Shown here one piece after another: positions 9,733-54,871 of a DNA stretch of 64,000 nt. Under the pieces are notes generated by a model. That model was not told where the DNA came from, did not search any database, and saw only the letters and a list, made by a program, of their open reading frames with translations. This DNA comes from an uncultured Planctomycetota bacterium (lineage in GTDB: Bacteria > Planctomycetota > PLA2 > JAEUHO01). Position 1 is the stretch's first letter, and the number at the start of each line of letters is the position of its first letter. The position numbers and the translations under genes were made by a program. The DNA lies in the NCBI GenBank assembly GCA_963752285.1, contig CAVVXN010000005.1:2144001-2208000 (forward strand). Reading direction: 5' to 3'.

Positions 9733-9930
9733 GCCGCGTCCCCCCCACGGTCCGCGAGGGGCTCGAGGCCGTCCGGCTCTCGGGCCTAACCAACATGCTC
9801 GACCGGCCGGCGGTGGCACGGATCGCCGCCGAGATGGGCTACGACGCCTGCGCGCGCTGGGTCCACCGCAACCGCGATCTCTACGCGCGCGGCGTCTTCC
9901 ACGGGTTCGAGGCCGGCGACGACGGGGAGG
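9733..9930 (+). pseudogene. DUF5049-like small protein, copy fused to the upstream SSB
   Basis: VREGLEAVRLSGLTNMLDRPAV; near-identical to 19683-19901. Confidence 0.7.
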
Positions 9931-10120
9931 GGATGCGAGGAACATCTACACGACGACGGCGCTTCACACGCGGAGTTCGCAGGCCCCGCAGTCACCTGGA
10001 CTCACGGGACTTTGGATGTGGTCCGGGGACGGGGGGTTGACGACCGCCTTGGATGGGGCTCTACTCCGGCTGTGGGGCGCCCAGGGGAAGGGCCTCAGGA
10101 GCCCCGCGCCGGAGAAGACG

Positions 10121-10456
10121 ATAATCACGCTACTGAGCTACTTCACCTACGCCCTGGCGAGCGGGCAGACCTTCGTGACCGAGTGGATGCGCATTCCTGA
10201 CGGTTACCAGAACTGGCAACTCGTCGTGGCCCAGTACGGGAAGATCTCAACCACGACTGTCACCTTTCAGTTGCAGACCTGCTGGGACACGGCGAGCCCA
10301 CAGGACATCGGTACGAGCATTCTCCTCGGCGGCCTGCTGGGACCGGACCCGCAGGACATCAGCTCGGGGATGGGCCCGATGGTCCGCGTGCGCCTCGTCG
10401 CGGGCGACGACTCGGTCGGGACCATCTCCGTCTACCTCACGCCGAAGAGCGAGTAG
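10121..10456 (+). CDS. Small beta-rich hypothetical protein (cargo 1, gene a); apparent ATA start
   Basis: GGAG at 10111 precedes ATA ATC ACG CTA; 111 codons, (M)ITLLSYFTYAL...VYLTPKSE. Confidence 0.55.
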   Translation: MITLLSYFTYALASGQTFVTEWMRIPDGYQNWQLVVAQYGKISTTTVTFQLQTCWDTASPQDIGTSILLGGLLGPDPQDISSGMGPMVRVRLVAGDDSVGTISVYLTPKSE

Positions 10457-10466
10457 GAGGGGGGCC

Positions 10467-11483
10467 ATGCCGGGCAAGTTCAAGCCGGGGGACGCAGTCC
10501 CGCCGGGAATCAGGAGCCTTCTCGACGCCGCGAAGGCTTTGCGCCCCGGAGTGGAACACCCGACGCTGCCGCCGGGAGTCGCAGCGCGACCGTTGGGCGC
10601 TGGGCCGACTGGCGAGGCGTTTCGCGGTCTTGCCCCCGGTCTAGCGGGCGCAGGGGCTGCGCGCGTGGGGCGGAAGTGTTGCCAAGACTCGGCTGCCCGG
10701 GTTGCGCAGCAGCTGGGCCTCTCGGCCTCCCAACTCCCTCGCGTGGTTCCTCCGGCGCCAGGGGAAACCCTGACCGAGCCCCGTCCAGACGTTCTGATTC
10801 CGGGGATTCCCGACTTTCTGATTCCGGGGATTCCCGGTGATGGAAATGGTGGCGGTGGTGGGTGCTCCGGCAGCCATTGCGAGTTGGTCGTCTTTACCTC
10901 GGACGAGCAGCTGGAGGCGATGGATGAGATTGGCACGCATCTGATGTCGGTCAGGGACCGGGCGTTCGAGGCGCGACAGCAGAACCCTCGTACTGCGCTG
11001 GCCATCCCGGATCCGCACTTGGGAGGCCCTCGGCGCTCGACTGCGCCGTTCTCTGGCGGGCCGATCCCGGGCACGACAGTCCAGGTTGCATCAGCCTTCA
11101 TGGCCGTATTGTTCTACGATTGCGAGTGCGTGCAGGTGGCCGAGATCCTCTGGGACATTGAGGATGAAATCGCACCGGACGGAACCATTCACTGGCGACC
11201 TGACGCGCAGGAGGAGGTCGCGAAGATCACGATCGGGAATCGCCTGAATGACGAGGCAGACAAATTCAACGGCTCTTGCTGGAAGGCCGTCGTTGACACG
11301 CCTGCCCACCATCAGCGGATGTGGGCCGGGCAGCGTCCTAGGCCCGACCCAAAGCCGAGGGACGGCCTGTGGCGCATCACCGGGCATGTTCGTTGGGCGA
11401 ATGGCTCGGAGTGCGTAAAGAAGGAATACGTGCGCGTCGCGCAGGGTGTCCCGCGACGCGTGGTCATGGTGGGGGCCCGTTAG
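10467..11483 (+). CDS. Hypothetical protein (cargo 1, gene b): Pro/Gly-rich N-half, Cys-containing C-domain
   Basis: RBS GGAGG; 338 aa; linker GDGNGGGGGC. Confidence 0.7.
   Translation: MPGKFKPGDAVPPGIRSLLDAAKALRPGVEHPTLPPGVAARPLGAGPTGEAFRGLAPGLAGAGAARVGRKCCQDSAARVAQQLGLSASQLPRVVPPAPGETLTEPRPDVLIPGIPDFLIPGIPGDGNGGGGGCSGSHCELVVFTSDEQLEAMDEIGTHLMSVRDRAFEARQQNPRTALAIPDPHLGGPRRSTAPFSGGPIPGTTVQVASAFMAVLFYDCECVQVAEILWDIEDEIAPDGTIHWRPDAQEEVAKITIGNRLNDEADKFNGSCWKAVVDTPAHHQRMWAGQRPRPDPKPRDGLWRITGHVRWANGSECVKKEYVRVAQGVPRRVVMVGAR
10788..10835 (+). repeat. 2 x 24-bp tandem repeat (DVLIPGIP/DFLIPGIP)
   Basis: GACGTTCTGATTCCGGGGATTCCC / GACTTTCTGATTCCGGGGATTCCC. Confidence 0.9.
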
Positions 11484-11511
11484 CGTGGGTCTGCCTCGTA
11501 AGAGAGTTCTG

Positions 11512-12024
11512 ATGGCGTCCCCAGCGGGAAGTTTCGGCCTCCGCGCCGGGACTCGGGCGCTGCGCGTGGGTTTGCTGCTACCTACTCTGCTTGCCGCCGT
11601 CTCGGGCTGCTCATCTCAGGCTCTTAGTGAACGAGGTACAATTTGCAGCCTTTGTGTCCGGGACGACGGATCTGTGAGGCTGCTGGAGCGCGACAGGGCG
11701 GCGAGGGCGCGAAGGTCAGCTCGCGTCGCGGCCGTTACACAGGATCCCTGCATACGCCGGATGCTGGAGAGTGGAATTATCGAGGTCGGCATGCGCGTCG
11801 AGGAGATACGTGCCTCTTGGGGAGCCGACGCCACGGACCCGATAGACGAGGACGGGCCTAGCTGCCACGTGATTGACTACGTGACTACCGGCATGAAGCC
11901 AGAGTCCTGGACGGTCCTCTTCCGGGGCGTGGAGTTGAGCTATGCCTGCATGGCGGCGTGCCAGCGCTGGGAGGATGGGCGTTTGGTGGGAATCTCGTGC
12001 AGGGGAACCAGTCGCACTGAGTAA
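11512..12024 (+). CDS. Lipoprotein with BamE/SmpA-like motif (cargo 1, gene c)
   Basis: Lipobox AVSGC; IEVGMRVEEIRASWG. Confidence 0.6.
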   Translation: MASPAGSFGLRAGTRALRVGLLLPTLLAAVSGCSSQALSERGTICSLCVRDDGSVRLLERDRAARARRSARVAAVTQDPCIRRMLESGIIEVGMRVEEIRASWGADATDPIDEDGPSCHVIDYVTTGMKPESWTVLFRGVELSYACMAACQRWEDGRLVGISCRGTSRTE

Positions 12025-12169
12025 GTTGGTCGAGCTCGACCTCCCCCCATCGACGTAGCCGTCAGATAGTCGGTCGAGATCTTGTAGCCGAGAATGCCAG
12101 CGGAACTCGGGGACGATCTATGGTAGGATGCGCGCGCGCCGATCCCAGCCGGCGCGAGCCGAGGCACCG

Positions 12170-12652
12170 ATGCCTTCGAAGCCGCGCACGCTCGCTGGGA
12201 TCCTACGCAGCCGCCGCCACGCGGACCGGGAGTACAACCGGGCGCGTCGCGACCCCGTCGTGGCCCGGATCCACGGGTCCGCCCGCTGGCAGGCCGTACG
12301 GGCCCAGGTGCTCCGCGACGAGCCCGTCTGCAGGGAGTGCGCACGCCTTGGGCTGACCGAGCCCGCTACCCAGGTGGACCACGTCGTCCCCCTGGCCGTG
12401 GCCCCCCAGCTCGCGTTCGATCGGGCCAACCTCGCCCCGACCTGCACCGCCTGCCACGCCCGCAAGAGCCAGGCCGAGCGAGTGAGGCTGAAGGGAGGGG
12501 TAGGGGGGAGTAAGGGCTCTCAGGCCGAGGGCGCCACGAGCGGGGCGCGGGGCATGCGTCGATTTTCACGGGATAGCCAAAACGTCTCCGGCGGCCGGGA
12601 GAGCCCTGGAAATGGACCTCCGCGGGGGTCCCCTCCCGGGAGCCGGCCGTGA
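12170..12652 (+). CDS. Terminase-associated HNH endonuclease, copy A
   Basis: W..VRAQVLRDEPVCREC, VDHVVPL, NLAPTCTACHARKS. Confidence 0.9.
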   Translation: MPSKPRTLAGILRSRRHADREYNRARRDPVVARIHGSARWQAVRAQVLRDEPVCRECARLGLTEPATQVDHVVPLAVAPQLAFDRANLAPTCTACHARKSQAERVRLKGGVGGSKGSQAEGATSGARGMRRFSRDSQNVSGGRESPGNGPPRGSPPGSRP

Positions 12653-12909
12653 TGCGCGTGGGACTGAAGTCCGCGAAGGGCGCCCTGTACGCCCTGGTCC
12701 GCGCCGTCGAGCAGGACGGCGAGCGGATCGTCCTGACCCGCCGCGGGCGCCCCGTCGCCGCCCTGCTCCCCGTGGGGGCGATCGAGGCGCTCGACCTCCT
12801 CGGGCGCCTGCTCCCCGACGTGGCCGACGTGGCGGCCGGGCTCGGCGACCCGGACCCCGAGGCCCCGGGCCTGGGCCCCGCCCCGGGCCCCGCGGAGGCG
12901 GCGCCGTGA
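12649..12909 (+). CDS. Phd/YefM antitoxin-like protein 1, copy A
   Basis: LVRAVEQDGERIVLTRRGRPVAALLP. Confidence 0.8.
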   Translation: MMRVGLKSAKGALYALVRAVEQDGERIVLTRRGRPVAALLPVGAIEALDLLGRLLPDVADVAAGLGDPDPEAPGLGPAPGPAEAAP

Positions 12910-13169
12910 CCGCCCCCGCCCCCCGCGCCGTCGCCGTCCGGCGCCTGCGGGCGACGCTCCGGGCCGTGGTCCGGGCCGTCGAGGAGGGCGGCGAGCCGGT
13001 GGTCCTCACCCGTCACGGCCGCCCGGTCGCCGCTCTCGTCCCCGTGGAGACGCTGGATCTGCTCTCTCCGGACGCCCCGACTGCTCTGCGCTCTCCGCTC
13101 TCGGCCGCTCTCGGCTCGCCTCCCGCCGACCAGAGCCCGGCCGCCACCCCGTCCCCGGAGGCCCCCTGA
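12906..13169 (+). CDS. Phd/YefM antitoxin-like protein 2, copy A
   Basis: GTG start overlapping the upstream stop; VVRAVEEGGEPVVLTRHGRPVAALVP. Confidence 0.75.
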   Translation: MTAPAPRAVAVRRLRATLRAVVRAVEEGGEPVVLTRHGRPVAALVPVETLDLLSPDAPTALRSPLSAALGSPPADQSPAATPSPEAP

Positions 13170-14392
13170 TGGTCGCCCCCTCCTCGAATCTCGGCCGGGT
13201 CCGCCTGGAGACCCGCCGCGTCGCCGACCTCGTGCCGGCGGCCTACAACCCGAGAATCATCTCGACCGAGGCTCTCGCCGGCCTCGGGGAGTCGATCGGC
13301 CGCTACGGGCTCGTGCAGCCGATCATCGTGAACGTCCGCAGCGGCAACGTAGTCGGCGGCCACCAGCGGCTGAAGGTGCTGGAGGCGAAGGGGGTCGAGA
13401 GCACCGACGTCGTCGTGATCGACGTCGAGGAGGCCGAGGAGAAGGCGCTCAACCTCGCGCTGAACTCGCCTCGGATCTCGGGCGAGTGGACGGCCGACGC
13501 GCTGGGCCTCCTCGAGGAGGTCGTGGGCGCGCTTCCCGACCTCGGCGACGCGCTGCTCCTCTCCGGCCTCCGGGGCGACCTGGAGAAGCTCTTCCCGCAG
13601 GAGGCCGGCGACATCGTCGAGGATCCGGTCCCCGATCCCCCGGACGACCCGATCACGAAACCGGGCGACCTGATCGTGCTCGGGAGCCACCGGCTCCTCT
13701 GCGGGGACTCGGGGAGCGAGGAGGACCTCGATCGGCTGCTCGCCGGCGCGCCGGTCCATCTGCTGAACACCGACCCTCCGTACAACGTGAAGGTCGAACC
13801 GCGGTCCAACAACGCGATCCGCGCTGGGCTCTCCTCGTTCCAGGCACCCGAGAAGCGCCACCACCAGGCGCTCGATCTCGCGCGACACCCCGAGAAGGCA
13901 AAGCCCACGCACCGGAAGATGCGCGCGAAGGACCGGCCGCTGGAGAACGACTTCCTCTCCGACGAGGAGTTCGAGCAGCGCCTGCGGGCGTGGTTCGGAA
14001 ACGCCTCGCGCGTGATGCTGCCCGGGCGCGCGGCCTACATCTGGGGCGGCTACGCGAACGTGGCGAACTACCCGCCGGCCTTGAAGGAGGCCGGCTTCTA
14101 CTTCTCCCAGACGATCATCTGGGACAAGCAGCACCCCGTGCTCACGCGCAAGGACTTCATGGGTGCGCACGAGTGGTGCTTCTACTCGTGGAAGATCGGC
14201 GCCGCGCACGCGTTCTACGGGCCGCCGAACGTGCCGGACCTGTGGAGCCTGAAGAAGATCTCGCCCCAGAAGATGGTCCATCTCACGGAGAAGCCCGTCG
14301 AGCTCGCCGCCCGCGCGCTCCAGTACTCCTCGAAGAAGGGCGAGAACGTGCTCGACCTCTTCGGCGGCTCTCGGGGACCTCGATCGACTTGA
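13169..14392 (+). pseudogene. ParB-N6/N4 DNA methyltransferase, copy A, C-terminally truncated
   Basis: YNPR..GGHQR ParB domain, TDPPYN; breaks at VLDLFGGS (~14370) into an inverted terL fragment. Confidence 0.88.
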
Positions 14393-14480
14393 AGGCGCGG
14401 TAGACCCGCGAGCGCGAGAGCAGTTCGGGGCGCTTGGCCACCATGTGCATGGCGTGGCGGAAGATCAGGGCGGCCTGGCA
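14372..14480 (-). pseudogene. Internal terL fragment (copy B)
   Basis: QAALIFRHAMHMVAKRPELL..VYRAFKSIEVPE matches ~25635-25742. Confidence 0.85.
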
Positions 14481-14821: not shown

Positions 14822-14974
14822 CTCGTCGCGGAGGACCTGGGCCCGGACAGCCTGCCACCGTGCGGAACCGTGGATGCGCGCAATGACCGGGTCGCGGCGG
14901 GCGCGGTTGTACTCCCGGTCCGCGTGGCGGCGGCTACGGAGGATCCCAGCGAGCGTCTTCGGCTTCGACGGCAT
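14822..14974 (-). pseudogene. HNH endonuclease 5' part, copy B
   Basis: MPSKPKTLAGILRSRR..VLRDE, cut by the IS66 end. Confidence 0.88.
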
Positions 14975-15165
14975 GGAGGCCTCGGGGCGAGCCCGCTGGG
15001 ATGAGCGCGACGGGAATCTACCACGCAGGAAGATCATAGGCGCGGTCGAAAGCCAGGCAGTCTGGCCCGTGCCCAGACGAATCGCATGCGACTTCTGCAG
15101 GGGCAGAGCGCCGGCGGAGGCGGGCAGATTCAGCAGATGCAGGCCACACGTTTTCCACCCGAGAG

Positions 15166-17127
15166 CTACTCAGGTATCTCGATGTCGTAGTCACCTTCTC
15201 CGGCAGCCAAGACAAGGAGTCCCACAGCACGGACTCCTCCGTTCGTTGCGGGCCCGCCCAGCACCCTCGGCCCCAAGTTCACATCCTCGTGATAATAGAC
15301 AGCGTATGTCCCCGGCGCGATGGGACCTACGGTCGTCCTCTGCCCCCACATCAAGGGCACAATCAGGCCATTCCTGTCTTCTTGCGTTGGCAGCCGGAGT
15401 TCGGCATGCCCGATGAGTGCAGTAACGTCTCCCCTTCGCAGTGCGATCCGCGCGACCGCCCATGTTCCCGGCGCGTTGTGCAGGAGGACGTCACGTGAGC
15501 CCACTTGCACGCGCGCGACGTCGAGCGTACGACGCATTTCGTACGGGGTGAAGGTGTAAGGGAACGTCGCAGCGCAGCCTAGATCAGACCCGGGCGGAAG
15601 GGGTATCGTTAGAGCCCAACGCCCATCGGGGTGAACCTCTGTCACCCAGAACTGGCCTGGCATGGCCAGGACGATCTCAGAGCGTTTCTCCTGGAAGTCA
15701 CGCCATGGTCGAGCTTGGATAACCACGCGCTGGCCCGCAACCGACGTGGGTCCCTCGAGTCTACCGGACAGCACACCGGCGGAGTCCACGCGCAACTCCT
15801 GTACCTCGATGTCCCCGGGCACTTTGAACCCCGAACCCCACGCATTGCGGTACGGGTCGGTGCTGACCTCGTAAACGCCGGGCCGTAGAGCGGAGGTCAG
15901 AAGCTCACCGTTTAGGTTGGTAGTCCAAGAGTCGGCGTGCGCAGTGGACGCACTCCCGCTGGGGTGGAACTCGGTAATGCCAGTATTGACATCCTCAGCA
16001 GGCTCTCCGGTCGCAAGTCGGCGGTAGCCTATGCCCAGATTCGGAAGTGCGGTCCCGTCCCGACCCACGAACCTGAGCCGGACGCGGTGACGCACGCCGA
16101 TGACAAGCCGGAGATCCGAGTCTGACCCGGCCTCCGCGAGGCTCTGCCACTCAAAAACTATCGGCCCTAGGTTCGGTTCCTTCACGATGGCGGTCACCGG
16201 CCCGTGCCGGTCGATCCGTAGCATCACCGGATCCCCATCGACCACCGTCGATCCCTCTGCGCTGCCAACCGCTTGGGTGATCACCGTAACCCCCACCCGC
16301 TTCCCGGAAAGCTCTGGGTTGTCACCCGAATCCACATAGACGGGGACCATGTCCACTGGCGAGTCGCGTGGCAGCACCAAACGTATCGTCTTCTCCTGCC
16401 CAGGCTGCACGGTCAACTGCTGCGGGACGGCGCTGAGCCGTCCCTCGGCGCCCGCCTGAACGTGAACGAACCCGACTACACCTGAGATACGTACCCGCCC
16501 CAAGCCGTCCGTCAGGTAAGGCCCCGTTCCCCATGCACTGACCGGACTCGTCCGGCACGGCACTCCAGCGAGAGGGTTCCCAGCGTCGTCCACAACCTCG
16601 ATGAGAACGCTCCCAGTTTCGAAGGCGATGACTCGGAGACGACGCTCGGCAGAGTCCGGCTCACTAGCGATGGTGACCTTGTTGAGTACGTGCGGTCCGG
16701 ACAAGAAGCCGGCCGGTTCGTCCACATAGGAAAGGCCCCAGGTAGCCGGCCCTTCGGCGGGCACATGGAGCCTATAGAGGGAGCCACGGGCCTCCGCCTG
16801 CACGGGTGTTGCTCCCACGCCGTCGAGCCTCAGCGCGGACAGCTGTCCTCCTGACACTGCGTTGCCCCGCCGATCCACGACCTCCACGGCAACCAGGATC
16901 GCTCGCTCGTCGGGCGACGCGTGTTCAGCTTGTTCCGCGGGTCTAGCATCCCCCCGCCCTTCAAGGCCGGGGTTGTCCACCTTCGTATCGACAGGCACAG
17001 GCTGTTGCGCCACGCTCCAACGCTTCTGTTCGTTGCGACAGAACAGCATGAGGCCGAGGACCAAGAAGATTCCGAGTATGGCAACTACGGTCAACCTGCG
17101 AGCCCTGGTAGCAAGGCCTCTAAACAT
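15166..17127 (-). CDS. Membrane-anchored protein with carboxypeptidase-regulatory-like beta-sandwich repeats (cargo 2)
   Basis: TM helix; VVD..G.PLAGV, TDGLGR, L.PG.Y repeats. Confidence 0.75.
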   Translation of the reverse strand: MFRGLATRARRLTVVAILGIFLVLGLMLFCRNEQKRWSVAQQPVPVDTKVDNPGLEGRGDARPAEQAEHASPDERAILVAVEVVDRRGNAVSGGQLSALRLDGVGATPVQAEARGSLYRLHVPAEGPATWGLSYVDEPAGFLSGPHVLNKVTIASEPDSAERRLRVIAFETGSVLIEVVDDAGNPLAGVPCRTSPVSAWGTGPYLTDGLGRVRISGVVGFVHVQAGAEGRLSAVPQQLTVQPGQEKTIRLVLPRDSPVDMVPVYVDSGDNPELSGKRVGVTVITQAVGSAEGSTVVDGDPVMLRIDRHGPVTAIVKEPNLGPIVFEWQSLAEAGSDSDLRLVIGVRHRVRLRFVGRDGTALPNLGIGYRRLATGEPAEDVNTGITEFHPSGSASTAHADSWTTNLNGELLTSALRPGVYEVSTDPYRNAWGSGFKVPGDIEVQELRVDSAGVLSGRLEGPTSVAGQRVVIQARPWRDFQEKRSEIVLAMPGQFWVTEVHPDGRWALTIPLPPGSDLGCAATFPYTFTPYEMRRTLDVARVQVGSRDVLLHNAPGTWAVARIALRRGDVTALIGHAELRLPTQEDRNGLIVPLMWGQRTTVGPIAPGTYAVYYHEDVNLGPRVLGGPATNGGVRAVGLLVLAAGEGDYDIEIPE

Positions 17128-17230
17128 CACACTCGTCTCCGAGATGGAAGCGTGGCTGCACACGCTGCCCCGTGGGGACCTGCGCGTGCGGCCACGCAGT
17201 GCAGCCGTAGATGCAAGGCGGCTCGCCTAG

Positions 17231-17977
17231 TCAGGGGGTGTAGCCAATGTTGACGTCGATCCTGGTCGTCTGGCTGAAGGAAGCGTGGACCGAGTGCAAG
17301 GGAATGCAGCTCGGGGGATCCGGATCCGGGGGGTTTGATCCCGTCCAGCTACCGTACGTGGAGTTGCCAGCTTCGGAGATAACGTACGGGGCGCTGGTGA
17401 AGGTGTACGGACCATCGGTACCCGTATAGGGCGTGCTGTTGATCTGGTCGGAGGTGTGCGGGGTCGGTGGCTGCGACCAGATGCTCGAGGTTCTGCTGTC
17501 GAGCGTCCCAGTAGGGGGAGTCGTAGAGGGTGGCGAGCCGACTTGCCCGCGGACGTAGAAGTACTGCAGATTGAGCGCGTAGCTGCCGCTGAACTGGCCG
17601 CCGCATGCGGTGGTGCAGCTCGCGGAGCCAGAAGGCGTCCACACCACAGCACCCCCGATCGTGTAGGTACCGGGCGGGTCCCCGCTCGGAGTCATGCTGA
17701 CCCGCTGGCTGTTGGGCCGTACGTCCCCGGCACCGCAGCTCTCCGGGCCGTGCTGGTCATTGCCGCTTTGGACGAGATTCCAGGTGGTCTGGTTCCAGAC
17801 GGTGTTGCCGTTCTGGCCGTAGGTGCGATTGGGCCCGGTGATGGACTGCCAGATGTCGCCAGACATCACGAAGCCGGTATTGGAAGTCGCGGTGAAACTC
17901 GCCGTGTACGCCAGCGCGCCGGCACCTCCCAACAGCCCCATCGCCAGCAGACACACGCTCATTTGCCAGAATCTCAT
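17231..17977 (-). CDS. Secreted Ser/Thr/Gly-rich protein (cargo 2)
   Basis: RBS GGAGGA; signal peptide MRFWQMSVCLLAMGLLGGAGALA. Confidence 0.8.
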   Translation of the reverse strand: MRFWQMSVCLLAMGLLGGAGALAYTASFTATSNTGFVMSGDIWQSITGPNRTYGQNGNTVWNQTTWNLVQSGNDQHGPESCGAGDVRPNSQRVSMTPSGDPPGTYTIGGAVVWTPSGSASCTTACGGQFSGSYALNLQYFYVRGQVGSPPSTTPPTGTLDSRTSSIWSQPPTPHTSDQINSTPYTGTDGPYTFTSAPYVISEAGNSTYGSWTGSNPPDPDPPSCIPLHSVHASFSQTTRIDVNIGYTP

Positions 17978-18149
17978 GTTTCCTCCTTGCTCGTTCCTTC
18001 TCCGGCCGTCGGGCCTCCCCCACACGGGCAGGCCTCATCCAGCCGCCACGGCAGGGTTGCCCCCCCCCCCAGTCACAGTTCTGTCACGGCCGGGGTGGGC
18101 ATGAACCGCTTCTGAACATGTCCCGCCGAGGCCCCTTGGCCGGGCAGAG

Positions 18150-18264
18150 CTACTGCACCTCCCCCTCGAACAGCACCCGCCCGTCCCGGTCGTGGAGCGT
18201 CACCCGCACGACCTCGCCCTCCGGGAGCCGCCCGTCGATCCGGATCTGCCGGGCGACCTGCCAG
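18150..18264 (-). pseudogene. 3' remnant of the conserved anchor ORF
   Basis: WQVARQIRIDGRLPEGEVVRVTLHDRDGRVLFEGEVQ*; homologous to 48286-48600. Confidence 0.85.
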
Positions 18265-18692
18265 TCATGCACGCTGTTCAACGTCCTTCCCTCAGCGCCT
18301 CGCGTCCCGTTCGATCTTCACCGCCACCTGATCGCTGTCTGCGCGCGACTCGATCCGCGTCACACCGAAGAGATGAACAGTAGCAGTCTCCCTCTCAACA
18401 CGTACGTCCGGGCCGAGGCCTGCGGACTGCTCTGGCCCCGGTGCCCGACCTGCGCCCGGGACGACCGGCCGGCGGGGAGCGCCGCCGGGTGCCGATGCTG
18501 CCGGGAGTTCGTGGAGGTCCACGGCCCCCGGGAGAGCGGGTGGATCTGATGCGCCCCTTCCAACCCCCTAGCGGCCCACGGACAGCCATTTTCAGGCCTC
18601 GGGGGCGGTCGAATCCTCTTGAGGTGCCCCCCGACCAGAGCCCTTATGCGACTCGACCGGCGGGGAGCGCCCCCGCCGCAAGGAGACTGACA

Positions 18693-20990: not shown

Positions 20991-21002
20991 GGGAGCAGAC
21001 CC

Positions 21003-43767: not shown

Positions 43768-43770
43768 AGC

Positions 43771-45898: not shown

Positions 45899-45980
45899 CC
45901 CCCGCAAACGGCCACAAATGGCCCCTTGGGGGCTGCATGCGTGGACATGCGTCCGCAGGCGGCTGCAAAAAGGTACGTAT

Positions 45981-46004: not shown

Positions 46005-46185
46005 GGCCAGAACGCGCTCTGCGAACGGCCCATGCGACGCCGCCCACGCGTGATTCCGCGTGACCACCGGGCGCGGACACCGGTGGTCGTTTCAGAGCGC
46101 GAGGCCCATGAATCGGGCCCTCCTGGAGGTGTCGCCCCGCGGAGGTACATCAGCGCTCCCACGGAACCCGTACGGAGCTCTCGGA

Positions 46186-47211: not shown

Positions 47212-47214
47212 GCA

Positions 47215-47335
47215 ATGCGTCACCTTCACGAGGAGATCAGCGCGCGGGTACGGCGGTGGCGCGAGGAGGGGTATCCATCCGGCTACCCGGTGCTCACCGA
47301 GATCCTGGAGTTTGCGGAGGAGGAAGGCGGCGCGT
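47215..47335 (+). pseudogene. N-terminal stub resembling a type III restriction Res subunit
   Basis: MRHLHEEISARVRRWREEGYP..EIL; recalled similarity only. Confidence 0.4.
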
Positions 47336-47417
47336 CGGCGATTGCGGTAACATCACGCAGCAACGTCACGTGTCATCCACCGCTCCGCGCTGGTGTGTCG
47401 GATGACGGGAGAACATC

Positions 47418-48281
47418 ATGCAGCGTCAGATAGAAGCGGGGACGATCCGAACCGACCTCGTACTGGCCGTCGGTCTGACGGCAGCGGTCTTGGGACTTGG
47501 TGTGTTCCTCGGGGCAAAGCTCCTGGGAGAGCATCCACCCGCGTCGTCGCGGCCCGTTGAGAGGGCGCAGACGCCACCTGGGCGTGAAGCTCCCGCGCCG
47601 ATGCTGCGGGGTACTGCGCTCCCGGATGATATCGGGAAGCGCCTGGCAGCTGTCGAGACGGCAGTGGCAGAGTTGCGCGCCTCGCAGGCGGCAAGCCAGG
47701 AGCAGATCCAACCTTTCGTCGAGGCGTACAGCGAGCTGAAGCGTGGGGGTGCCTTGATCCCAATGGAGAGTTCCACGCCCGCGATCCCCACTGTCTCCGA
47801 GCGTGCGACGACGGGCGATAACACGGGTAAGATCGCTCGTGAGTTAGGCCTCGACGCGGCCCGCCGGGAGGCGATGGCAACCGAGTTCGCGCAGACGCTA
47901 GCTGACCTCGAAGCGTTGGAGAAGGCCCATGCTGAGGTTACGCGCGATGGGGCCGTCACGACTATCAAGATCGACAAGTACGGCGACGAGGCCAGCGGGG
48001 CCGTTCAGCGGTGGCGGGACTGGATTGACCGCAATCTCACACCCGACGAGAAGGAAGCCTACGAGCGGGAGCACGCCGAGTCGCAGTTGATCGGGCTGCA
48101 CGCGGGCCAGTTCGACCGCACCGTTCGGATCGACGAAACGGGTGGCGCCATCCGAGTCAAAGAAACCATCGCAACGAAGGACGGCCCGATGGATGTACTC
48201 CAGGGGACCGCACCTGCGGAGGCACGCGATCTCGTGCTCGCCCCCTACAGCCACCTCCTCCCCAAGCCTCCCGGTCGGTGA
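47418..48281 (+). CDS. Membrane-anchored coiled-coil hypothetical protein (cargo 7)
   Basis: RBS GGAG; TM at aa ~14-33; ends 4 bp from the anchor ORF stop. Confidence 0.78.
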   Translation: MQRQIEAGTIRTDLVLAVGLTAAVLGLGVFLGAKLLGEHPPASSRPVERAQTPPGREAPAPMLRGTALPDDIGKRLAAVETAVAELRASQAASQEQIQPFVEAYSELKRGGALIPMESSTPAIPTVSERATTGDNTGKIARELGLDAARREAMATEFAQTLADLEALEKAHAEVTRDGAVTTIKIDKYGDEASGAVQRWRDWIDRNLTPDEKEAYEREHAESQLIGLHAGQFDRTVRIDETGGAIRVKETIATKDGPMDVLQGTAPAEARDLVLAPYSHLLPKPPGR

Positions 48282-48285
48282 GGAG

Positions 48286-48600
48286 CTATCGCACTTCGCC
48301 TTCGAACAGCACCCGCCCGTCCCGGTCGTGGAGCGTCACCCGCACGACCTCCCCCTCGGGGAGCCGCCTGTCGATCCGGATCTGCCTCGCGACCTTCCAG
48401 ACGACGAGCCGGTTCCGCGCCTCCTCGTGCGCCTCCTCTTGGGAGGTGAAGAACACGGGCCGCTGGTCCATCGTGAGGCCGCCAGCGAACTGCAGACGGA
48501 GCCCGTCGATGGTCGTCTCGAAGCAGACGTCCGGCAGCGTCGAGTGGGGTCCTAGGGGGTCCATCACGACCCACAGCGGGGTAGCTGCGTCGATCCTCAT
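48286..48600 (-). CDS. Conserved 104-aa anchor ORF, the only complete copy
   Basis: MRIDAATPLWVVMDP..DVCFETT..GL.LQFAGGL..VLFEGEVR; coupled to DUF5049. Confidence 0.8.
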   Translation of the reverse strand: MRIDAATPLWVVMDPLGPHSTLPDVCFETTIDGLRLQFAGGLTMDQRPVFFTSQEEAHEEARNRLVVWKVARQIRIDRRLPEGEVVRVTLHDRDGRVLFEGEVR

Positions 48601-48824
48601 CGCGCCCCCTCCCGGCCGTCGTCGGCCTCGAAGCCGTGGAAGACGCCGCGGGCGTACAACGCCCGGTGATCCCGGGCCCAGCGCGCGCAGGCCTCGTAGC
48701 CCATGGCGGCGGCGATCCGGGCCACCGCCGGGCGGTCGAGCATGTTCGTGAGGCCCGAGAGCCGGACGGCCTCGAGCCCCTCGCGGACGTCGGGGGGCAC
48801 GCGAACGGCGTCGCGCTCGGTCAT
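48597..48824 (-). CDS. DUF5049-like protein
   Basis: Near-identical to 19683-19901. Confidence 0.78.
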   Translation of the reverse strand: MTERDAVRVPPDVREGLEAVRLSGLTNMLDRPAVARIAAAMGYEACARWARDHRALYARGVFHGFEADDGREGAR

Positions 48825-48871: not shown

Positions 48872-49235
48872 CTGGTGAAGGGCTGGCGAAGCACGCGGCC
48901 GACGAGTTGGGTCATCGCACGGGCGGATCCGGTGTTGCTGAGGCTCACAAGGATGTAGGCATAGGGGCAGTCCCAGCCCTCCTGCAGAGCGCTCTTCGTG
49001 ATGATCCAGGTGATGGGGCAGCCCTCGTCGAGCAGGTCGATGCCCTCGATGTCGTCCTGTTTGGATGACTTGATTGCGATCTCGGCCTCAGCCACGCCCA
49101 AGCGGGCCATGAGGTGCTTCTTCACGTCCTCCGCGTGGACGAAGCCTCTGCCCTGCTGGTCCTTCCCGGTCCGCTCGACCTGTACGAGGACGATGGGCCG
49201 CAGCGGGGGCTTGGCTTCCGCGCCCTCGGAGTGAT
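48872..49235 (-). pseudogene. Type III Res/helicase internal fragment (inverted)
   Basis: IITKSALQEGWDCP.AYIL, TQLVGRVLRQP. Confidence 0.75.
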
Positions 49236-49929
49236 CGTCGACCGCGCAGTAGACCACGTCATAGAGCGAGAGCCCACAGTCAGGGGTCGCGTGGGGCTTG
49301 CGAAGTACGCCCTGCGCGAGAGGCTTATCGGATTCATCAATGCCCAACAGGACGTCCAGACCGAGCATGTATTCCGGGATCTCGTGGTCAGGAAGCGCAT
49401 CGCCTTCTACCTTGAGTGCATCGAGTGCCGCTTCGAGCTTCCGCCTGAGATCGAGCTCCGCAGCACACACCGCCTCACGGACGACGACAACCGCGAGGTC
49501 GCGAAGACGCTCTTCGAGTGGGCGGCTGCCGAGGAGTTCAACGAGTACGAGCGCGAGGTTGCGCTGTGCATCGACAAACACCCCGAGGTGCTCTGGTGGT
49601 ATCGCAACGCGGTCGGACGGGACTGCTTCTCGATCCAGGGCTACCGGCGTGATCGCGTGTACCCCGACTTTGTGGTTCAGAAGGGCACCGAAGGCAGGCC
49701 CGCCCCCGCCGTGGTCGTCGTGGAGGCGAAGGGCGAGCACCTCTCCGGCAACGTCGACACGGAGTACAAGCGTGACCTCGCGCAGTTCTTTGAGAAGGTC
49801 GGACGCCACGTCACATGGCAGGAACTTGGCGAGGGATTCGCTGACGCTACGTTTCGTATCCAAGTGCTAGATCAGGATGATGCAGGCGCTTGGAAGGACG
49901 GACTGGACGCGGTATTGCGGAGTGGATGA
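49236..49929 (+). pseudogene. Type III Res C-terminal PD-(D/E)xK nuclease fragment
   Basis: WWYRN, YPDFVV, VEAKGEHL..DT.YK. Confidence 0.75.
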
Positions 49930-49934
49930 CGGCC

Positions 49935-50281
49935 ATGGAGAAGAAGCTCAAGCACCTGGAGTTCATCCAGCAGGCGATCAACAGAATGGCCTCCAACCTC
50001 TTCCTTCTCAAGGGCTGGACGGTGACTCTCATTGCCGCGATGTTCGCACTGGCTGCGAAGGAATCGAAGGACCTGTACTTCTTTCTCGCATACTTCCCGA
50101 CGATTATGTTCTGGCTCTTGGATGGTTACTTTCTTTCCCAGGAGCGTCGCTTCCGATCCCTCTACGCGCACGTCTCTAGGATTGAAGAGGATGCCATCGA
50201 CTTCTCGATGGACACTCAGCCTTTCAAAAACACGCCAACGAGGAACAAGTGGTCACGCGCACTGTTCTCGCCGACTCTGCT
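49935..50281 (+). pseudogene. Small multi-TM protein (HLEFIQ..INRMA type), C-terminus replaced
   Basis: KHLEFIQQAINRMASN.FLLKGW, LDGYFLSQERRFR.LY; fused in frame to an integrase tail. Confidence 0.65.
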
Positions 50282-50438
50282 CACCCTCCTCGCCGCCGCC
50301 GGCGTCGATGTCGCCACGATCGGCCGCGTCCTCGGGCACCGGCCGGGCTCGCCGATCACGCTGCGGTACCTCCACTCGGACGATGAGCGACTGCGGGAGG
50401 CAGCGGAGGCCGTGGCTGCGGCTGTCCGGTCGGCGTAG
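50282..50438 (+). pseudogene. Integrase C-terminal remnant (second allele)
   Basis: TLLAAAGVDVATIGRVLGHRPGSPITLRYLH, homologous to ~47050-47211. Confidence 0.85.
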
Positions 50439-50832
50439 GCCACGAGCGGGACTACCGTCTCGGAGGGCCGGACTGTTAGTTCACCGTATGGCTTGTGCCG
50501 CACGCGCGGCACCCTACCTTCCCCTTGGAGGCCGACGCCGATGGCTGCACGCCCCAAGCGATCGAAGAAACGTGGACGGAAGAAGAAGGCGGAGAGCGCC
50601 AGAGCAGCCGGGGATTGACGGGCTCACGCGCGCGGTGCGAGCATGGCAAGCGTGGAGTCGTTGGGTACGGCGGCGCGCGCGTGCCGATAAGCCTGGATCG
50701 CGTTGCTCTACATCACCGGCGGATGCCCCGCCACGCCGTTCGCGGGTGCGCGTCGGATGTCGACAGCGAGCGGCTGATCCTCGGGGCCTGCGGGGGCCCA
50801 TCAGAGCGCCCCCGCAAGCCGGCCACCCTCTA

Positions 50833-51612
50833 TCAACTCTGGTTGAAGATCGCGAGAAGCGCTCCGCGGGTCGATGCGCCGCCAGTCAGGATGATGAAGA
50901 CCTGGATCGTCTCGCCGGGGGCAACGGAGTCACCGGTTAGGGTGAAAGCGTGGTCACCATCCATCGTAACGGTGAAGATCTTGTCTGGGATAGTCACGGT
51001 ATCGATGGCGGGAACGTCCCCGACGAGTTCGAATCGGCCGAAGTTGAGGGGGTTCCCGCTGGTATTGTGGATGGGGAGAAGCAGGCCCGTATCGGCCTGA
51101 AGAACGGGCCTCGCGACGATGGCCGCCGTCCCCGCATCGAAAGTCCCCAAGTCCGTGCAACTCTGCGACACGTTCGGGGGCTTCGTGGAGAATGACATGG
51201 AGAACTTCACGGCTGAGGCCCCGAGATTGGTGGTCGCATCCACCTTCACCTTGAAAGCTGTGTTGGCGGGAATCTGATTCGTGAGGTCGATCTTGCCGTG
51301 GCTGGGGCCATCGCCGCTGAAGTCCACATGCTCGTCGATGGTCCCATGAAGGACGTGGACGGAGTGAATGCCGCCGCTCAACTCCTTGCCGTTCTCGTCC
51401 TCGATGCGGAACGTGACGTCGCACACCAGGAAACTAGCGTCGAATGTAAACTCGTAGGTGTTTCGGACTATCCCCCCGCCCGTGATGATCTTGTCGCTCT
51501 GGAAGTTCGGATCGGCGGAGGTCAGGGACTTTCCGCCGCCGACGATGGTCGCTGCCGCCGCGACTGTCGCGAACGCAACGATGGCAATGAACAGGGTCAA
51601 CGAACGCTTCAC
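50833..51612 (-). CDS. Secreted beta-rich protein (cargo 8)
   Basis: RBS GGAGG, GTG start; signal peptide KRSLTLFIAIVAFATVAAA. Confidence 0.78.
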   Translation of the reverse strand: MKRSLTLFIAIVAFATVAAAATIVGGGKSLTSADPNFQSDKIITGGGIVRNTYEFTFDASFLVCDVTFRIEDENGKELSGGIHSVHVLHGTIDEHVDFSGDGPSHGKIDLTNQIPANTAFKVKVDATTNLGASAVKFSMSFSTKPPNVSQSCTDLGTFDAGTAAIVARPVLQADTGLLLPIHNTSGNPLNFGRFELVGDVPAIDTVTIPDKIFTVTMDGDHAFTLTGDSVAPGETIQVFIILTGGASTRGALLAIFNQS

Positions 51613-51782
51613 GGTGGAACCTCCATCTCCTTCGGCCTGTTGGGCCTGCCCACACCGAAAGGCCTCGCGCGTCCGACGGAAGCACGGTACCGCAGCATGC
51701 GCTCCGATCAACCCACCTCCGAATTCCAGCAAGCATCATGCCCGGGACTTACGGCTTCCGCGCCTGGGAACCCAGGGGGCTG

Positions 51783-51881
51783 CTACCCTCCGTGCCCCTC
51801 GAACAGCACCCGCCCGTCCCGGTCGTGGAGCGTCACCCGCACGACCTCCCCCTCGGGGAGTCGCCGGTCGATCCGGATCTG
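51783..51881 (-). pseudogene. Anchor ORF 3' remnant
   Basis: QIRIDRRLPEGEVVRVTLHDRDGRVLFEGHGG*. Confidence 0.85.
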
Positions 51882-52002
51882 GGAGGCCATCGACCTCGTG
51901 GCCGCTATCGAGAAGACCTACGACCGGTTCCCGGAGGAGATCCAAGCGGAGTTCCCGCTCCGGCGCGTGTGGGCGCTCGTACCGGACGACACAGAAGAGT
52001 AG
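51882..52002 (+). pseudogene. C-terminal stub resembling an Mrr-type restriction endonuclease
   Basis: DLV.AI...YDRFPEEIQAEFPLRRVW; recalled similarity. Confidence 0.45.
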
Positions 52003-52036
52003 GCGCCCATACATACGGCGACGTGGAGACATCACC

Positions 52037-52570
52037 ATGCTGGTCTGGGCGAAAGAGTTCTCAACGCACGGAGGCAACACCGCGGCAGACGTGCTTGAGG
52101 TGGCAAAGCGCTGGTTGATCGGAAGCCCACACGGTGCATGGACAGAGAAGTGCTTCGCAGACAGCCAGCCAGGAGAGTTTTCGACGCACACTTGCGGCGA
52201 CCAAGTTGCCACCACTGCCATCGCCAAGATTGATAGTGGCGTAGTGGCAGGGCTTCGCCATTACTGGGAGCAGAAGCACTGCGAGTGGGTCACCGAGGTC
52301 GTCGGGTATGAGCGTCCCGAGAGCCTCCAACTCGCCGTACGAGTCGAGTGCAATGCCCTCCAAGCAGGTCAGCGCGTGCCCAAGGTACGCAAGCCGTACG
52401 TGGTGCGACTCCTGCTCGAGCACTTCGGAGACGGGGACGATGCCGGTCTACCTATCGGCGGCGACCCCATTCTCATCAGAGAGGCTGACGTACGCATGGC
52501 TGCGGCCCTCCTCTCTGGCAATCACGACAACCGCTTTCCCGTCGTGTACGTAAGCGCTGGCGCACGCGAT
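52037..52570 (+). pseudogene. Hypothetical protein N-terminus cut by IS256
   Basis: RBS GGAG; open frame up to the IS end at ~52571. Confidence 0.6.
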
Positions 52571-53043
52571 GGGGGTGTAACGTTCTTTCTGTAAAAGACT
52601 CCCCGACCGGAGGAGCCGGGGCCCTCTCGCTTCCGCGAGCGTAGCGAGCGGAAGCGAGAGGGCCCCGGCGCGGCCGTGCCGGGGGGAAAGTGGTGGCGGA
52701 TCAGCGCCGATCCAACTGCAGGTGCCAACCAAGCAGGAGGAACCGACGTGACCCACCACCCGCAGACTACGTCCATCGATCGGATCCTGGAAGTGGTCGC
52801 TGAAGAGAGCTTCGGCGGCATGAGCGAGGCGATCCGGGTGCTGCTCAACGAGGTCATGAAGATCGAGCGCTCCGCCTTCCTGGGGGCCGCTCCCTACGAG
52901 CGGGCCGAGTCTCGGCGCGGCCACGCCAACGGCTTCAAGCCCAAGACCGTGGCCACGCGGGTGGGGAAGATCACCCTGGACGTCCCCCAGGTCCGCGGCG
53001 CCCCGGATGGCGAGACCTTCTACCCGCCGTGCCTCGAGCGCGG
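52571..53043 (+). mobile_element. IS256-family left end and transposase 5' fragment
   Basis: End GGGGTGTAACGTTCTTTCTGTAAA; GTG 52748; ERSAFLGAAPYER..NG.KPKTV.TRVG.I.LDVPQVR. Confidence 0.85.
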
Positions 53044-53349
53044 CCATGGGCCTGTCGCCCTTGCGGGTAGTCCTTCGGCGAAGACGATCGTAACCCCGGA
53101 TGCTGAGGTGAAGGTGCAGCTGCTGTAGCGCATGTTACGCATGTTCTGGATGAACGCCCGCAGGGCGTCCCCCATGTCGCCCGTGGCACTCAGGCTGGGC
53201 GGCGTCCCCTGACTTGCGGTGAGCCCCGCCTGCTGCATGGCAGCCTGACCATCGCTGTTCACGTCGGCCCTGGCGACCATCAGTCCCACGACGCCGAGGA
53301 CGACGCAGGCAGCCAGGGCGACAGCGACTCTGCGCGTGTGCTTGCCCAT
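53044..53349 (-). pseudogene. Secreted protein 5' part (cargo 9), truncated
   Basis: Signal peptide MGKHTRRVAVALAACVVLGVVGLMVARA; ends at the IS256 junction. Confidence 0.6.
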
Positions 53350-53557
53350 TGAAATCCCGTCCTTTCTGACGTGCTCACGCGGCCCATCCCGCCTCGAACA
53401 CGCTGTCTCGACCGTACTCCGATCAACGCTGGGGTCAACCCGAGGAACCGCGACCACGGCCAGATGGCCGGTCCAGGCGACAAGATAGGGCTTGGGGCCC
53501 CCGTGGGCTCCCTGCGGACCACGGACTCCGCAGTCGATTCAGGCGGAATCCCGCAGG

Positions 53558-53622
53558 TTAGGACACGTCCCCCTCGAACAGCACCCGCCCGTCCCGATCG
53601 TGGAGCGTCACTCGCACGACTT
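53558..53622 (-). pseudogene. Anchor ORF 3' remnant
   Basis: VVRVTLHDRDGRVLFEGDVS*. Confidence 0.8.
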
Positions 53623-53797
53623 CAGCCTCGGCGGGCGGACCGGCGCTCCAGCCACCAGTAGAGGCAGCCGTAGAAGAAGCCACCGAGCACCCCTACGAGT
53701 CCGTACACCAACGCGCAGCGCGGCCAGGGCGGCGAACCTCGACCTCCACGCGGGCACCCTCGCCCTGCGCGGCGACCTCCCTGCGCACAGGAAGAGG

Positions 53798-54610
53798 ATG
53801 AACGAGATCCGCCGACGACTGGAGCGGTGGGTGGAGTTTGTCAATCCATACGTCCGAATCCGCCGCGCCATCACTGAACTCCACAATGAGTTGAAGAGTC
53901 TCGACTTGGATCCAGAGGGGCGGAAGCTAGGGTCCATCTGGCAAGACAATTCTCCCGATGAAGCCGGCAAGCTTTGGACTGACGCTGCCAACCGATACAG
54001 CAAGGGAGTCGGCCTCTGTTTCGGCATTCGGTCCATGATACCCGTCCTTGCAGAGTCCTTCGTAAACCTGGTTCTGAGCATACTGATGAGACCAGACCTC
54101 AAGACCGACAACAGACTCCGTGAGAACATCCTCCGGCAGCCAATTGATGTGCGAGTCAAATCGCTGCACGTGAATTGTGTCGGCTTCTCATCCGCGATTG
54201 ACTACAGCACCGAGCCGTGTGCGAACTACCACCGCTTAGTCAACAAGCGCAATGACCTCCTCCATGGCAACGTGGACGTCGAGAAGCTGAAGTTCAACGA
54301 AGTCTACTTCGACCGCAAAGTCCCAATCTTCACTGAGTACCGTTCGCTGTGGAGGCGAACGATCAGCGTGTGGTTGGGTGCCGTCGGACTGGACCAACTG
54401 GATTCTGAGCTTGAAACAGTGGATGCCTTCGTGGAGTACGTCCTCTCGTGCATGACTGACTCGACAGCGGATGTCGTCCGCCAGTTCCTTGCGAGCTACG
54501 AGCTCGGCAGAGAGGCTCGAACAGAGAGAAATGGCATTCTGTTCCCCAACCTCCTCATCGACTTTGTCGGGGAGGGCATGCCGCGGTTCGGGGCTCCTGC
54601 ACTCGAGTAG
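53798..54610 (+). CDS. HEPN-like (Rx4H) protein, probably 5'-truncated
   Basis: AESFVN and KRNDLLHGN motifs; lower GC. Confidence 0.6.
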   Translation: MNEIRRRLERWVEFVNPYVRIRRAITELHNELKSLDLDPEGRKLGSIWQDNSPDEAGKLWTDAANRYSKGVGLCFGIRSMIPVLAESFVNLVLSILMRPDLKTDNRLRENILRQPIDVRVKSLHVNCVGFSSAIDYSTEPCANYHRLVNKRNDLLHGNVDVEKLKFNEVYFDRKVPIFTEYRSLWRRTISVWLGAVGLDQLDSELETVDAFVEYVLSCMTDSTADVVRQFLASYELGREARTERNGILFPNLLIDFVGEGMPRFGAPALE

Positions 54611-54619
54611 GTGCCCAAG

Positions 54620-54871
54620 TCAGCAGACATCTCCGCTGAACAGCACCCGCCCGTCCCGGTCGTGGAGCGTCACTCGGACGACCTCCCCCTAAGGGAGCCG
54701 CCGGTCGATCCGGATCTTCCGGGCGATGCGCCACACGACCAAGCGGTCCTTGGCATCCTCGTGGGCCTCCTCCTGGGTGGTCCAGATCACCGGCCTCTGG
54801 TCCATGGAGAGCCCGCCAGCGAACTGCAGGCGGAGGCCGTCCAAGGTCGTCTCGAAGCACACGTCGGGGAT
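54620..54871 (-). pseudogene. Anchor ORF 3' remnant (long)
   Basis: PDVCFETTLDGLRLQFAGGL...VLFSGDVC*, with an internal TAG. Confidence 0.85.

Follow-up and report, generated by a model that had tools for sequence, protein, structure and literature searches.

The 64,000-nt stretch analysed here, hereafter the window (G000:C5:2144001-2208000), belongs to a 5-contig metagenome-assembled genome (MAG) of an uncultured Planctomycetota bacterium (4.64 Mb, 73% GC, 89% complete) and contains a series of phage-derived segments that repeat one gene order around a single variable position, the slot. We call the segments to the left of the second copy of an attachment (att)-type repeat remnants A to E, and those to its right units F to I (Table 1). 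The series begins at a tRNA-Arg(CCT) gene whose 3' part recurs as a 64-nt repeat just before a tyrosine integrase gene, so that an integrase with att-type repeats is present at a tRNA gene, where a preliminary description of this DNA had placed the locus. The two copies of the repeat are the only ones in the genome, with five or more remnants present, and the integrase is the sole intact tyrosine recombinase in the window, a phage-type enzyme lying 1-40 kb from the slots. The tRNA-Arg locus shows no synteny with G001, a MAG of the same genus, the matches being limited to the tRNA and to dispersed genes that are 68-73% identical.

The repeated order runs from DUF2924 and DUF5049 genes and a gene that we call the anchor, through the slot, to an HNH gene, two Phd genes, a ParB-methylase gene, DUF1937 and the terminase genes TerS and TerL. 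This order had been read from the sequence in the preliminary description, which proposed a self-comparison of the window; when this was carried out by repeat search and self-BLAST, the backbone was recovered in segments 12119-14370, 21983-26671, 32360-33722 and 36662-39911, which share 83-92% identity and occur in both orientations. Besides HNH, Pfam identifies the Phd pairs (Phd/YefM-type), ParB_N with N6_N4_Mtase, DUF1937, Terminase_4, the ATPase and nuclease domains of TerL, and two DUF2924 genes. All five HNH copies that had been reported are present, three by Pfam match and two, at 39611-39877 and 14822-14974 (both on the minus strand), by tblastn or nucleotide similarity only; Pfam gives no family for 39611-39874, and the shortest copy is a fragment of about 200 nt recognised by nucleotide similarity at 14822-15030. 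The four DUF5049 genes (Pfam) and the five anchor 3' ends (18147-18264, 48283-48400, 51795-51881, 53564-53649 and 54638-54868) likewise agree with that description. The only full anchor gene of the window, in unit F, encodes 104 amino acids, and all anchor copies have the stop-codon end in common and vary at the opposite end. The anchor protein matches no Pfam or PHROG family, and its structural model, although confident (predicted local distance difference test score 84.8), found nothing better than E = 0.5 in a Foldseek search of the PDB. The protein family is nevertheless real, comprising 377 representative clusters at E <= 1e-3, and its N-terminal part is also found fused to DUF2924 and in the tails of relaxases or helicases. 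Portal, capsid and tail genes are absent from the window, as had been stated, and Pfam portal and capsid models gave no match in the whole assembly either.

In every copy the slot lies at the same place, with the anchor gene on one side and HNH on the other, and holds different DNA of lower GC content. For comparison with relatives we used 60 related Planctomycetota genomes and the window's own genome (61 in total), queried with the TerL protein; a scan of genome contigs with HNH gave 15 loci and a scan of viral contigs with the anchor alignment gave 5. We compared 22 slots, 9 in the window, 3 elsewhere in its own genome and 10 in other genomes (8 or more genomes overall). GC content is 0.51-0.65 in the window slots, and 0.51-0.68 in 21 of the 22 slots (the distant slot of G020 being at 0.76); the backbone is at 0.70-0.77 and the genome as a whole at 0.73. 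Slots are 0.9-5.8 kb long and carry up to several genes each. Only one of 231 pairs shares cargo (loci L028 and L029); by eye, L033 and both slots of the viral contig L062 also appear to have a common first small gene. The nine window slots have no cargo in common by blastn or tblastx at a threshold of 1e-8, and the sole stretch shared among them is a 150-nt segment at the left border of slots B and D. The proposal of a fixed slot with unrelated, lower-GC cargo therefore holds beyond the window.

The slot has conserved borders. On the left it is bounded by the anchor stop codon, and on the right by a conserved TGGTA box, a spacer and a 7-bp hairpin with an 8-nt loop, followed by the ribosome-binding site of HNH. 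The hairpin has the form GCGCTS...SGGCGC with the loop ATCCCAGC, and shows compensatory changes in 2 of its 7 pairs, with C-G/G-C swaps in 4 of 10 sequences. To judge from the sequence, the packaging operon probably has its promoter and 5' leader in the box and hairpin. One transcription unit ends at the left border of the slot and the leader of another forms the right border; neither is a recombination site. The analysis found no recombinase tied to the slot, nor any repeated cassette site flanking the cargo; slots share just the backbone borders.

Open reading frames (ORFs) of the cargo were called by GC-position rules and not by the codon-usage gene caller, which was trained on ORFs with GC above 0.85 at the third codon position and higher at the first than at the second; in this genome of 73% GC, antisense shadow ORFs contaminate unfiltered codon-usage training. 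Both strands carry cargo genes. For 11 of the 17 window cargo ORFs, a home-made heuristic of hydrophobicity and lipobox, not SignalP, predicts a signal peptide, lipobox or transmembrane anchor, which bears out the secreted or membrane character noted at first sight; relatives and the other slots of the same genome show the same tendency. Most cargo was left without a family by Pfam, PADLOC and PHROGs. In the ESM Atlas the 665-aa protein of slot B groups with planctomycete CarboxypepD_reg surface proteins, and the 0.80-score matches of the product of 21003-21788 are at chance level; one cargo protein that we examined has a single homologue among 5.8 billion proteins. PADLOC, run on 41 proteins, found a candidate defence gene in one unit only (PDC-M50A, 49890-50438). 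Slot D differs in kind: the stretch 33837-36472, described as cargo, does have a lower GC content, but mostly holds no genes, with one ORF of 111 aa and a remainder that is mostly non-coding. Some 2.3 kb of it (34200-36470, 50-55% GC) is poor in ORFs and includes a 650-nt tract (35140-35790) whose plus strand has 1.5% C, 47% A and 31% G; this C-depleted tract is the only one of its kind in the 4.64-Mb assembly, and may be a real feature or an assembly artefact.

The nature of the backbone becomes clear from relatives. TerL matched in 14 of the 61 genomes; the TerL proteins of relatives are about 558 aa long, and in 9 of 11 loci outside the window's own genome a portal gene follows directly (at L009 and L010 no portal was found with the portal query used). 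In G006:C40 the order DUF2924, anchor, slot, HNH, ParB-methylase, TerS, TerL continues into portal, an HK97-family capsid gene, connector, head-completion, tail-completion, gp10-like and further tail genes. In G016:C12 the early genes upstream encode a PD-(D/E)XK nuclease, AAA_24 and an NrS-1-type primase-polymerase, and in G001:C5, where three related prophages lie within 80 kb, the prophages jointly hold TerL, portal, S49 protease, capsid, head-completion and tail-completion genes. An HK97-type packaging and head block is found at all three loci; in the window no more is left of it than HNH, TerS, a truncated TerL and 30 residues of the protease. Since the relatives continue into head and tail genes, the backbone is part of an ordinary HK97-type tailed temperate phage, namely the stretch from its early genes to its packaging genes, and the window copies, by their gene content, are classed as defective members of this group. 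The preliminary description, which had taken them for capsid-less, satellite-like elements, had itself named complete ordinary prophages with invariant content in relatives as evidence that would count against it; ordinary prophages with head and tail genes are what the relatives carry, and invariant slot content is not.

The copies in the window end at different points inside genes: the methylase of A at residue 401 of 458, the TerL of C at residue 484 of 558 and the ParB of D at residue 112, while copy C begins within the last 45 residues of the primase-polymerase. Copy D once carried head genes, because its ParB residue 112 is joined to protease residues 258-287. A common breakpoint in the HNH fragments was considered and rejected, the fragments ending at about codons 50, 51, 66, 80, 82 and 100. 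In a nucleotide tree of the HNH-Phd region (13 rows) the four long window copies interleave with those of G001 and with other copies of the same genome, and forcing the four longest into one clade is rejected (approximately unbiased (AU) test, p = 0.00165) at a cost of 38 log-likelihood units. Ratios of nonsynonymous to synonymous substitution (dN/dS) between copies are 0.13 for the methylase, 0.15-0.16 for HNH and 0.02 for DUF1937, and 0.07 for TerL against G001; the differences between copies are mostly synonymous and therefore arose while the genes were working. As the copies do not form one clade and diverged under purifying selection, we regard them as separate phage arrivals and not as one element family collecting cassettes. 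The phage backbone is 85-97% identical between the window's genome and G001, whereas the best host flanking genes reach just 68-73%, so the phage family moved recently between these hosts.

A further mobile element is associated with this backbone. G001:C5 contains a RIT-like (recombinase-in-trio) element of 3112 bp, in which three tyrosine recombinase genes stand in tandem between inverted ends of about 27 nt; RIT elements are characterised, in passages of PMC3414803, by three adjacent, slightly overlapping tyrosine recombinase genes. The arrangement in G001 agrees with this (L015: 5122-6042, 6024-6989 and 6989-7987, each a Pfam Phage_integrase match), with assignment to the RitA/RitB/RitC families as a candidate. 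Two copies (L015:4968-8079 and L016:9450-12561), 100% identical and in opposite orientation, are inserted in two prophages, in both cases at codon 67 of the anchor gene; one of two other fragments in G001 lies beside a DUF5049 gene and the other is joined to an anchor 3' end, so that 4 of 4 copies or fragments in G001 adjoin the phage backbone. The window's own genome has a decayed RIT end directly beside an anchor 3' fragment (C5:1081184-1081667), and the window anchor fragment 18147-18264 stops within about 3 nt of the G001 insertion point. These positions suggest a strictly targeted mobile element, which may have driven some of the inversions and deletions of prophage pieces. They also favour the idea that such targeting of codon 67 stacked and inverted the prophage pieces and made the isolated anchor 3' ends, which as a full explanation we nonetheless judge unlikely: the window contains no RIT sequence by blastn or tblastx and no match to the end repeat with up to 3 mismatches, its other anchor fragments end elsewhere (51881, 53649, 54868), HNH fragments also break at varied positions, and the mobility of RIT elements is itself just inferred in passages of PMC3414803.

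We consider it quite likely that the region from 7.9 to 55 kb is a graveyard of defective HK97-type tailed temperate prophages of one Planctomycetota family, at and next to the tRNA-Arg(CCT) att site, in which the slot is a moron position. At least five defective prophages are represented, and probably nine or more. What had been put forward as an undescribed system is a familiar kind of thing, a prophage pile-up with a moron hotspot, in a little-studied phylum. Each phage would have arrived separately with its own accessory load already aboard, after which deletions, inversions between homologous copies, insertion sequence (IS) insertions and point mutations would have removed the head, tail and most replication genes. 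The moron position would lie between the anchor, as the last early or replication gene, and the promoter-like leader of the HNH-terminase packaging operon; foreign DNA would enter at this point and later be exchanged between phages when the conserved flanks undergo ordinary recombination, with no dedicated cassette recombinase involved, so that cargo would differ between phages. Cargo expressed from the prophage could benefit the host, for instance by excluding superinfecting phages or modifying the cell surface, and selection on it would explain why the remnants are centred on the slot. Several observations sit uneasily with this account. The assembly is without any portal or capsid gene. Genome-wide counts (HNH about 9, anchor 7, DUF5049 6, methylase 4, TerL 3, AAA_24 1, portal 0, capsid 0) are centred on the slot, a clustering that random decay alone would not predict and that needs selection on cargo or a mechanistic bias; they suggest that cargo is what is kept. 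Simple decay also gives no detailed account of the four co-oriented anchor-plus-cargo units at 48.3-54.9 kb or of the tandem anchor-slot units in the unrelated contig L062. Finally, intact or further prophage copies may be unassembled, two contig ends being phage-like (the end of C5, 2336853-2347332, has an integrase 63% identical to that of the window and tail genes 85% identical to those of G006, and C3 has an anchor fragment at 507141-507269, about 1 kb from its end), and the 5-contig MAG may contain assembly chimeras.

The preliminary description had instead proposed capsid-less satellite-like packaging elements at tRNA-Arg that actively collect cassettes in the manner of an integron. The absence of portal and capsid genes from window and assembly, the retention of the slot and its flanks in every copy, the diverse and often secreted-looking cargo and the co-oriented anchor-plus-cargo array at 48.3-54.9 kb would all agree with such elements, but the same backbone continues into portal, capsid and tail genes in relatives, and leftover protease and primase-polymerase fragments show that those genes were once present here. 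The copies end at varied intragenic positions, with a stop codon and frameshifts; the only window integrase adjoins the tRNA att repeat, away from any slot; there is one slot per backbone copy, bounded by a gene end and a promoter-like leader and sharing no cassette site; and the anchor repeats have the same left end and different right ends, the reverse of the pattern expected from a fixed crossover site. This proposal is largely refuted, and we give it very little credence. We give as little credence to an assembly artefact, in which variants of one or two prophages from different strains in the metagenome would have been joined in error so as to look stacked: the assembly is a 5-contig, 89%-complete MAG whose contigs end in phage-like repeats, and the low-GC part of slot D at 34.2-36.5 kb, which includes the C-depleted tract, is odd and does not resemble real genes, yet the copies are 8-17% diverged, differently truncated and have different cargo and junction partners, unlike collapsed or duplicated variants, and stacking recurs both in the independent same-genus MAG G001 (three related prophages within 80 kb) and in the tandem units of the IMG/VR contig L062. 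Beyond the graveyard of separate arrivals, it is possible, though we would put it forward only tentatively, that the slot cargo and not the phage is the selected unit, so that repeated lysogeny by one family followed by slot-sparing decay built up in the chromosome of this lineage a library of at least a dozen unrelated proteins, mostly orphan and secreted or membrane-bound (9 window slots and 3 to 5 elsewhere), with a RIT-type element at codon 67 helping to shuffle and stack them. The outcome would resemble that first proposed, by a passive route with a targeted mobile element.

Among known systems, integrons consist of an IntI integrase beside attI and a Pc promoter, with cassettes that end in attC-type imperfect inverted repeats and share one orientation. 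The locus resembles them as a chromosomal collection of unrelated small gene loads beside a repeated sequence, but no attC-like sites were found, there is a single slot in each copy of the backbone, the cargo is found in either orientation and seems to bring its own signals, and the repeats are gene fragments with variable ends. No IntI next to attI was found in the window, IntI-specific motifs not having been examined, nor any attC-ended cassettes in one orientation, the slots sharing no repeat apart from the backbone borders and using both strands. Phage satellites such as phage-inducible chromosomal islands (PICI), capsid-forming PICI, P4 and PICI-like elements (PLE) are families with conserved content and conserved ends, some of which keep packaging genes; like them, the locus is integrated phage-derived DNA without some or all virion genes. 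Here, in contrast, the lack of virion genes comes from copy-specific truncation, and neither a family-wide lack of such genes nor defined ends were seen, as relatives have virion genes and the window ends vary. Clusters of defective prophages at tRNA genes share with the locus tandem or serial integration at a tRNA att site and the later loss of lysis and structural genes with retention of accessory genes, as in the 'domesticated' prophage remnants reportedly treated by Bobay et al. 2014; here retention is unusually focused on the slot and two half-genes, as counted in one genome.

The closest likeness is with the morons of lambdoid and HK97-type temperate phages, described in passages of PMC3594210 as extra DNA between conserved phage genes with deviating GC content, often encoding membrane proteins that block superinfection. 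Likewise, differing DNA lies here between two conserved phage genes, its base composition is unlike that of the flanking phage genes (21 of 22 slots), its content varies among related phages and many of its products are membrane or secreted; the examples reviewed in those passages block superinfection or alter the cell surface. Unlike them, the phages studied here have a single hypervariable position with one cargo-sharing pair among 22 slots and up to several genes in each, a planctomycete host and nearly all cargo orphan. The variable hotspots of P2 and P4, which according to a part of PMC9122126 hold anti-phage systems, similarly lie at fixed positions between conserved core genes and exchange diverse cargo; compared with what that part describes, the window has one candidate defence unit among the 41 scanned proteins and cargo that is mostly secreted- or membrane-looking.

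The remaining features are listed in Table 1. Between the inverted copies C and E, two patches (24300-24710 with 37540-37950 and 23218-23565 with 38697-39044) are 94-97% identical in surroundings of about 88%, and the DUF1937 proteins are 99% identical, a pattern in the sequence that suggests gene conversion between the two. The non-phage filler between remnants C and D includes an AAA_15-type ATPase that, from its weak matches, may belong to a defence system. On the right-hand side of the integrase, the product of 49890-50438 in unit G (PDC-M50A, E = 9.6e-47) has two transmembrane segments, and that of 49114-49929 resembles the C-terminus of a type III restriction enzyme. The succession of integrase 3' end, cargo and opposite-strand anchor 3' end occurs twice, at 46060-48600 with a full integrase and at 50241-51881 with a 50-residue fragment, an adjacency that is not accounted for by simple random decay. 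The viral contig L062 (IMG/VR, 12775 nt) shows the order anchor, slot, HNH (66 codons), anchor, slot, tail-completion genes, and because this unrelated contig has a tandem pair, the stacking of anchor-slot units is not unique to the window's genome.

Table 1. Positions of the phage-derived segments and neighbouring features in the window (TM, transmembrane)
Feature	Position	Strand	Basis or remark
tRNA-Arg(CCT), integration target	7869-7945	+	ARAGORN; Rfam tRNA 67.9 bits
Left att-type repeat, 3' part of tRNA	7896-7959	+	64-nt direct repeat, 97% identical to 45843-45906
Remnant A	8587-14370	+	Pfam, tblastn maps, methylase alignment
A, AAA_24	8587-9405	+	Pfam
A, early gene (187-aa gene of relatives) fused to DUF5049	9402-10040	+	Fused by internal deletion
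A, slot A	10041-12127	+	
A, HNH	12128-12652	+	Pfam
A, Phd pair	12649-12909, 12906-13169	+	Pfam
A, ParB-methylase, cut	13169-14392	+	Alignment stops at 401/458
Stray inverted TerL fragment, residues 139-174	14370-14477	-	
Remnant B	14822-18264	-	
B, HNH 5' fragment, ~50 codons	14822-15030	-	
B, slot B	15031-18146	-	
Slot B, 665-aa CarboxypepD_reg membrane protein	15166-17163		
Slot B, 248-aa signal-peptide protein	17231-17977		
B, anchor 3' end, last 38 codons	18147-18264	-	
Remnant C, longest remnant	18406-26672	+	Pfam
C, primase-polymerase C-terminal 45 residues	18406-18540	+	
C, DUF2924	18441-19070	+	
C, unnamed ORFs	19067-19402, 19399-19686	+	
C, DUF5049	19683-19901	+	
C, slot C	19902-22032	+	
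Slot C, two paralogous signal-peptide proteins	20145-20990, 21003-21788		
C, HNH	22033-22446	+	Pfam
C, Phd	22519-22779	+	Followed by second, broken Phd (split match)
C, ParB-methylase	23026-24402	+	
C, DUF1937	24402-24740	+	
C, TerS	24733-25224	+	
C, TerL	25221-26672	+	In-frame stop 26535-26537; homology lost at residue 484/558
Non-phage filler, including orphan ORFs	26673-32272		Pfam, PADLOC
Filler, TTL (tubulin-tyrosine-ligase)/ATP-grasp-like gene in two parts	28846-29265, 30154-30981		Pfam
Filler, IS1595-family transposase	29268-30212		Splits the TTL/ATP-grasp-like gene
Filler, AAA_15/PtuA-like ATPase	31235-32149		Weak PADLOC matches to AriA and PtuA N-termini
Remnant D	32273-36643	-	
D, prohead-protease fragment, residues 258-287	32273-32362	-	30 residues
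D, ParB N-terminal 112 residues	32364-32696	-	Fused to protease fragment
D, Phd pair	32696-32950, 32947-33198	-	
D, HNH	33205-33687	-	Pfam
D, slot D	33688-36643	-	Mostly non-coding
Remnant E	36644-42904	-	
E, TerL N-terminal fragment	36644-37012	-	5 stops
E, TerS		-	Frameshifted (split match)
E, DUF1937	37537-37850	-	
E, methylase		-	Frameshifted (split match); ParB and second Phd deleted
E, HNH	39611-39877	-	
E, slot E	39878-40823	-	
Slot E, two signal-peptide proteins	40037-40372, 40405-40827		
E, DUF5049	40824-41024	-	
E, unnamed ORF	41021-41242	-	
E, DUF2924	41239-41625	-	
E, early genes	41825-42904	-	
Right att-type repeat, tRNA-Arg 3' part	45843-45906	+	Rfam: partial tRNA only, 29.1 bits
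Tyrosine integrase, directly after second att copy	46060-47211	+	Pfam Phage_integrase, E = 3.2e-17
Unit F	47212-48824	-	
F, TM-anchored cargo, 287 aa	47418-48281	+	
F, full anchor gene	48286-48600	-	
F, DUF5049	48597-48824	-	
Unit G	49114-51881		
G, candidate defence pair (PDC-M50A)	49114-49929, 49890-50438		
G, integrase 3' fragment	~50241-50416		3' end of ORF 49890-50438 runs into it
G, signal-peptide cargo	50833-51612	-	
G, anchor 3' end	51795-51881		
Unit H	51882-53649		
H, Mutator-family transposase fragment	52676-53128		Pfam
H, signal-peptide cargo	53020-53349	-	
H, anchor 3' end	53564-53649		
Unit I	53650-54868		
I, cytoplasmic-looking 270-aa cargo	53798-54610	+	
I, anchor residues 20-103	54638-54868	-	
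Transposase gene after unit I	54689-55576		rve 55932-56462
HNH leader	21983-22032, 33688-33757, 39878-39947		Also in L015, L018, L020, L028, L029, L033, L035

Taken with its relatives, the locus allows a first outline of a family of temperate phages, and of its accessory-gene position, in uncultured Planctomycetota, a phylum from which few phages are known. When decayed prophages leave stacked backbone copies that lack capsid genes, these can be mistaken for a novel satellite or cassette system, and comparison with relatives quickly settles which of the two is at hand. Two by-products deserve note, a RIT-like element with an apparently strict target in a phage gene and a prophage decay that is centred on the slot. 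Many orphan proteins, secreted or membrane-bound, come from the slot position itself, and they may shape the cell surface or the phage resistance of these bacteria.

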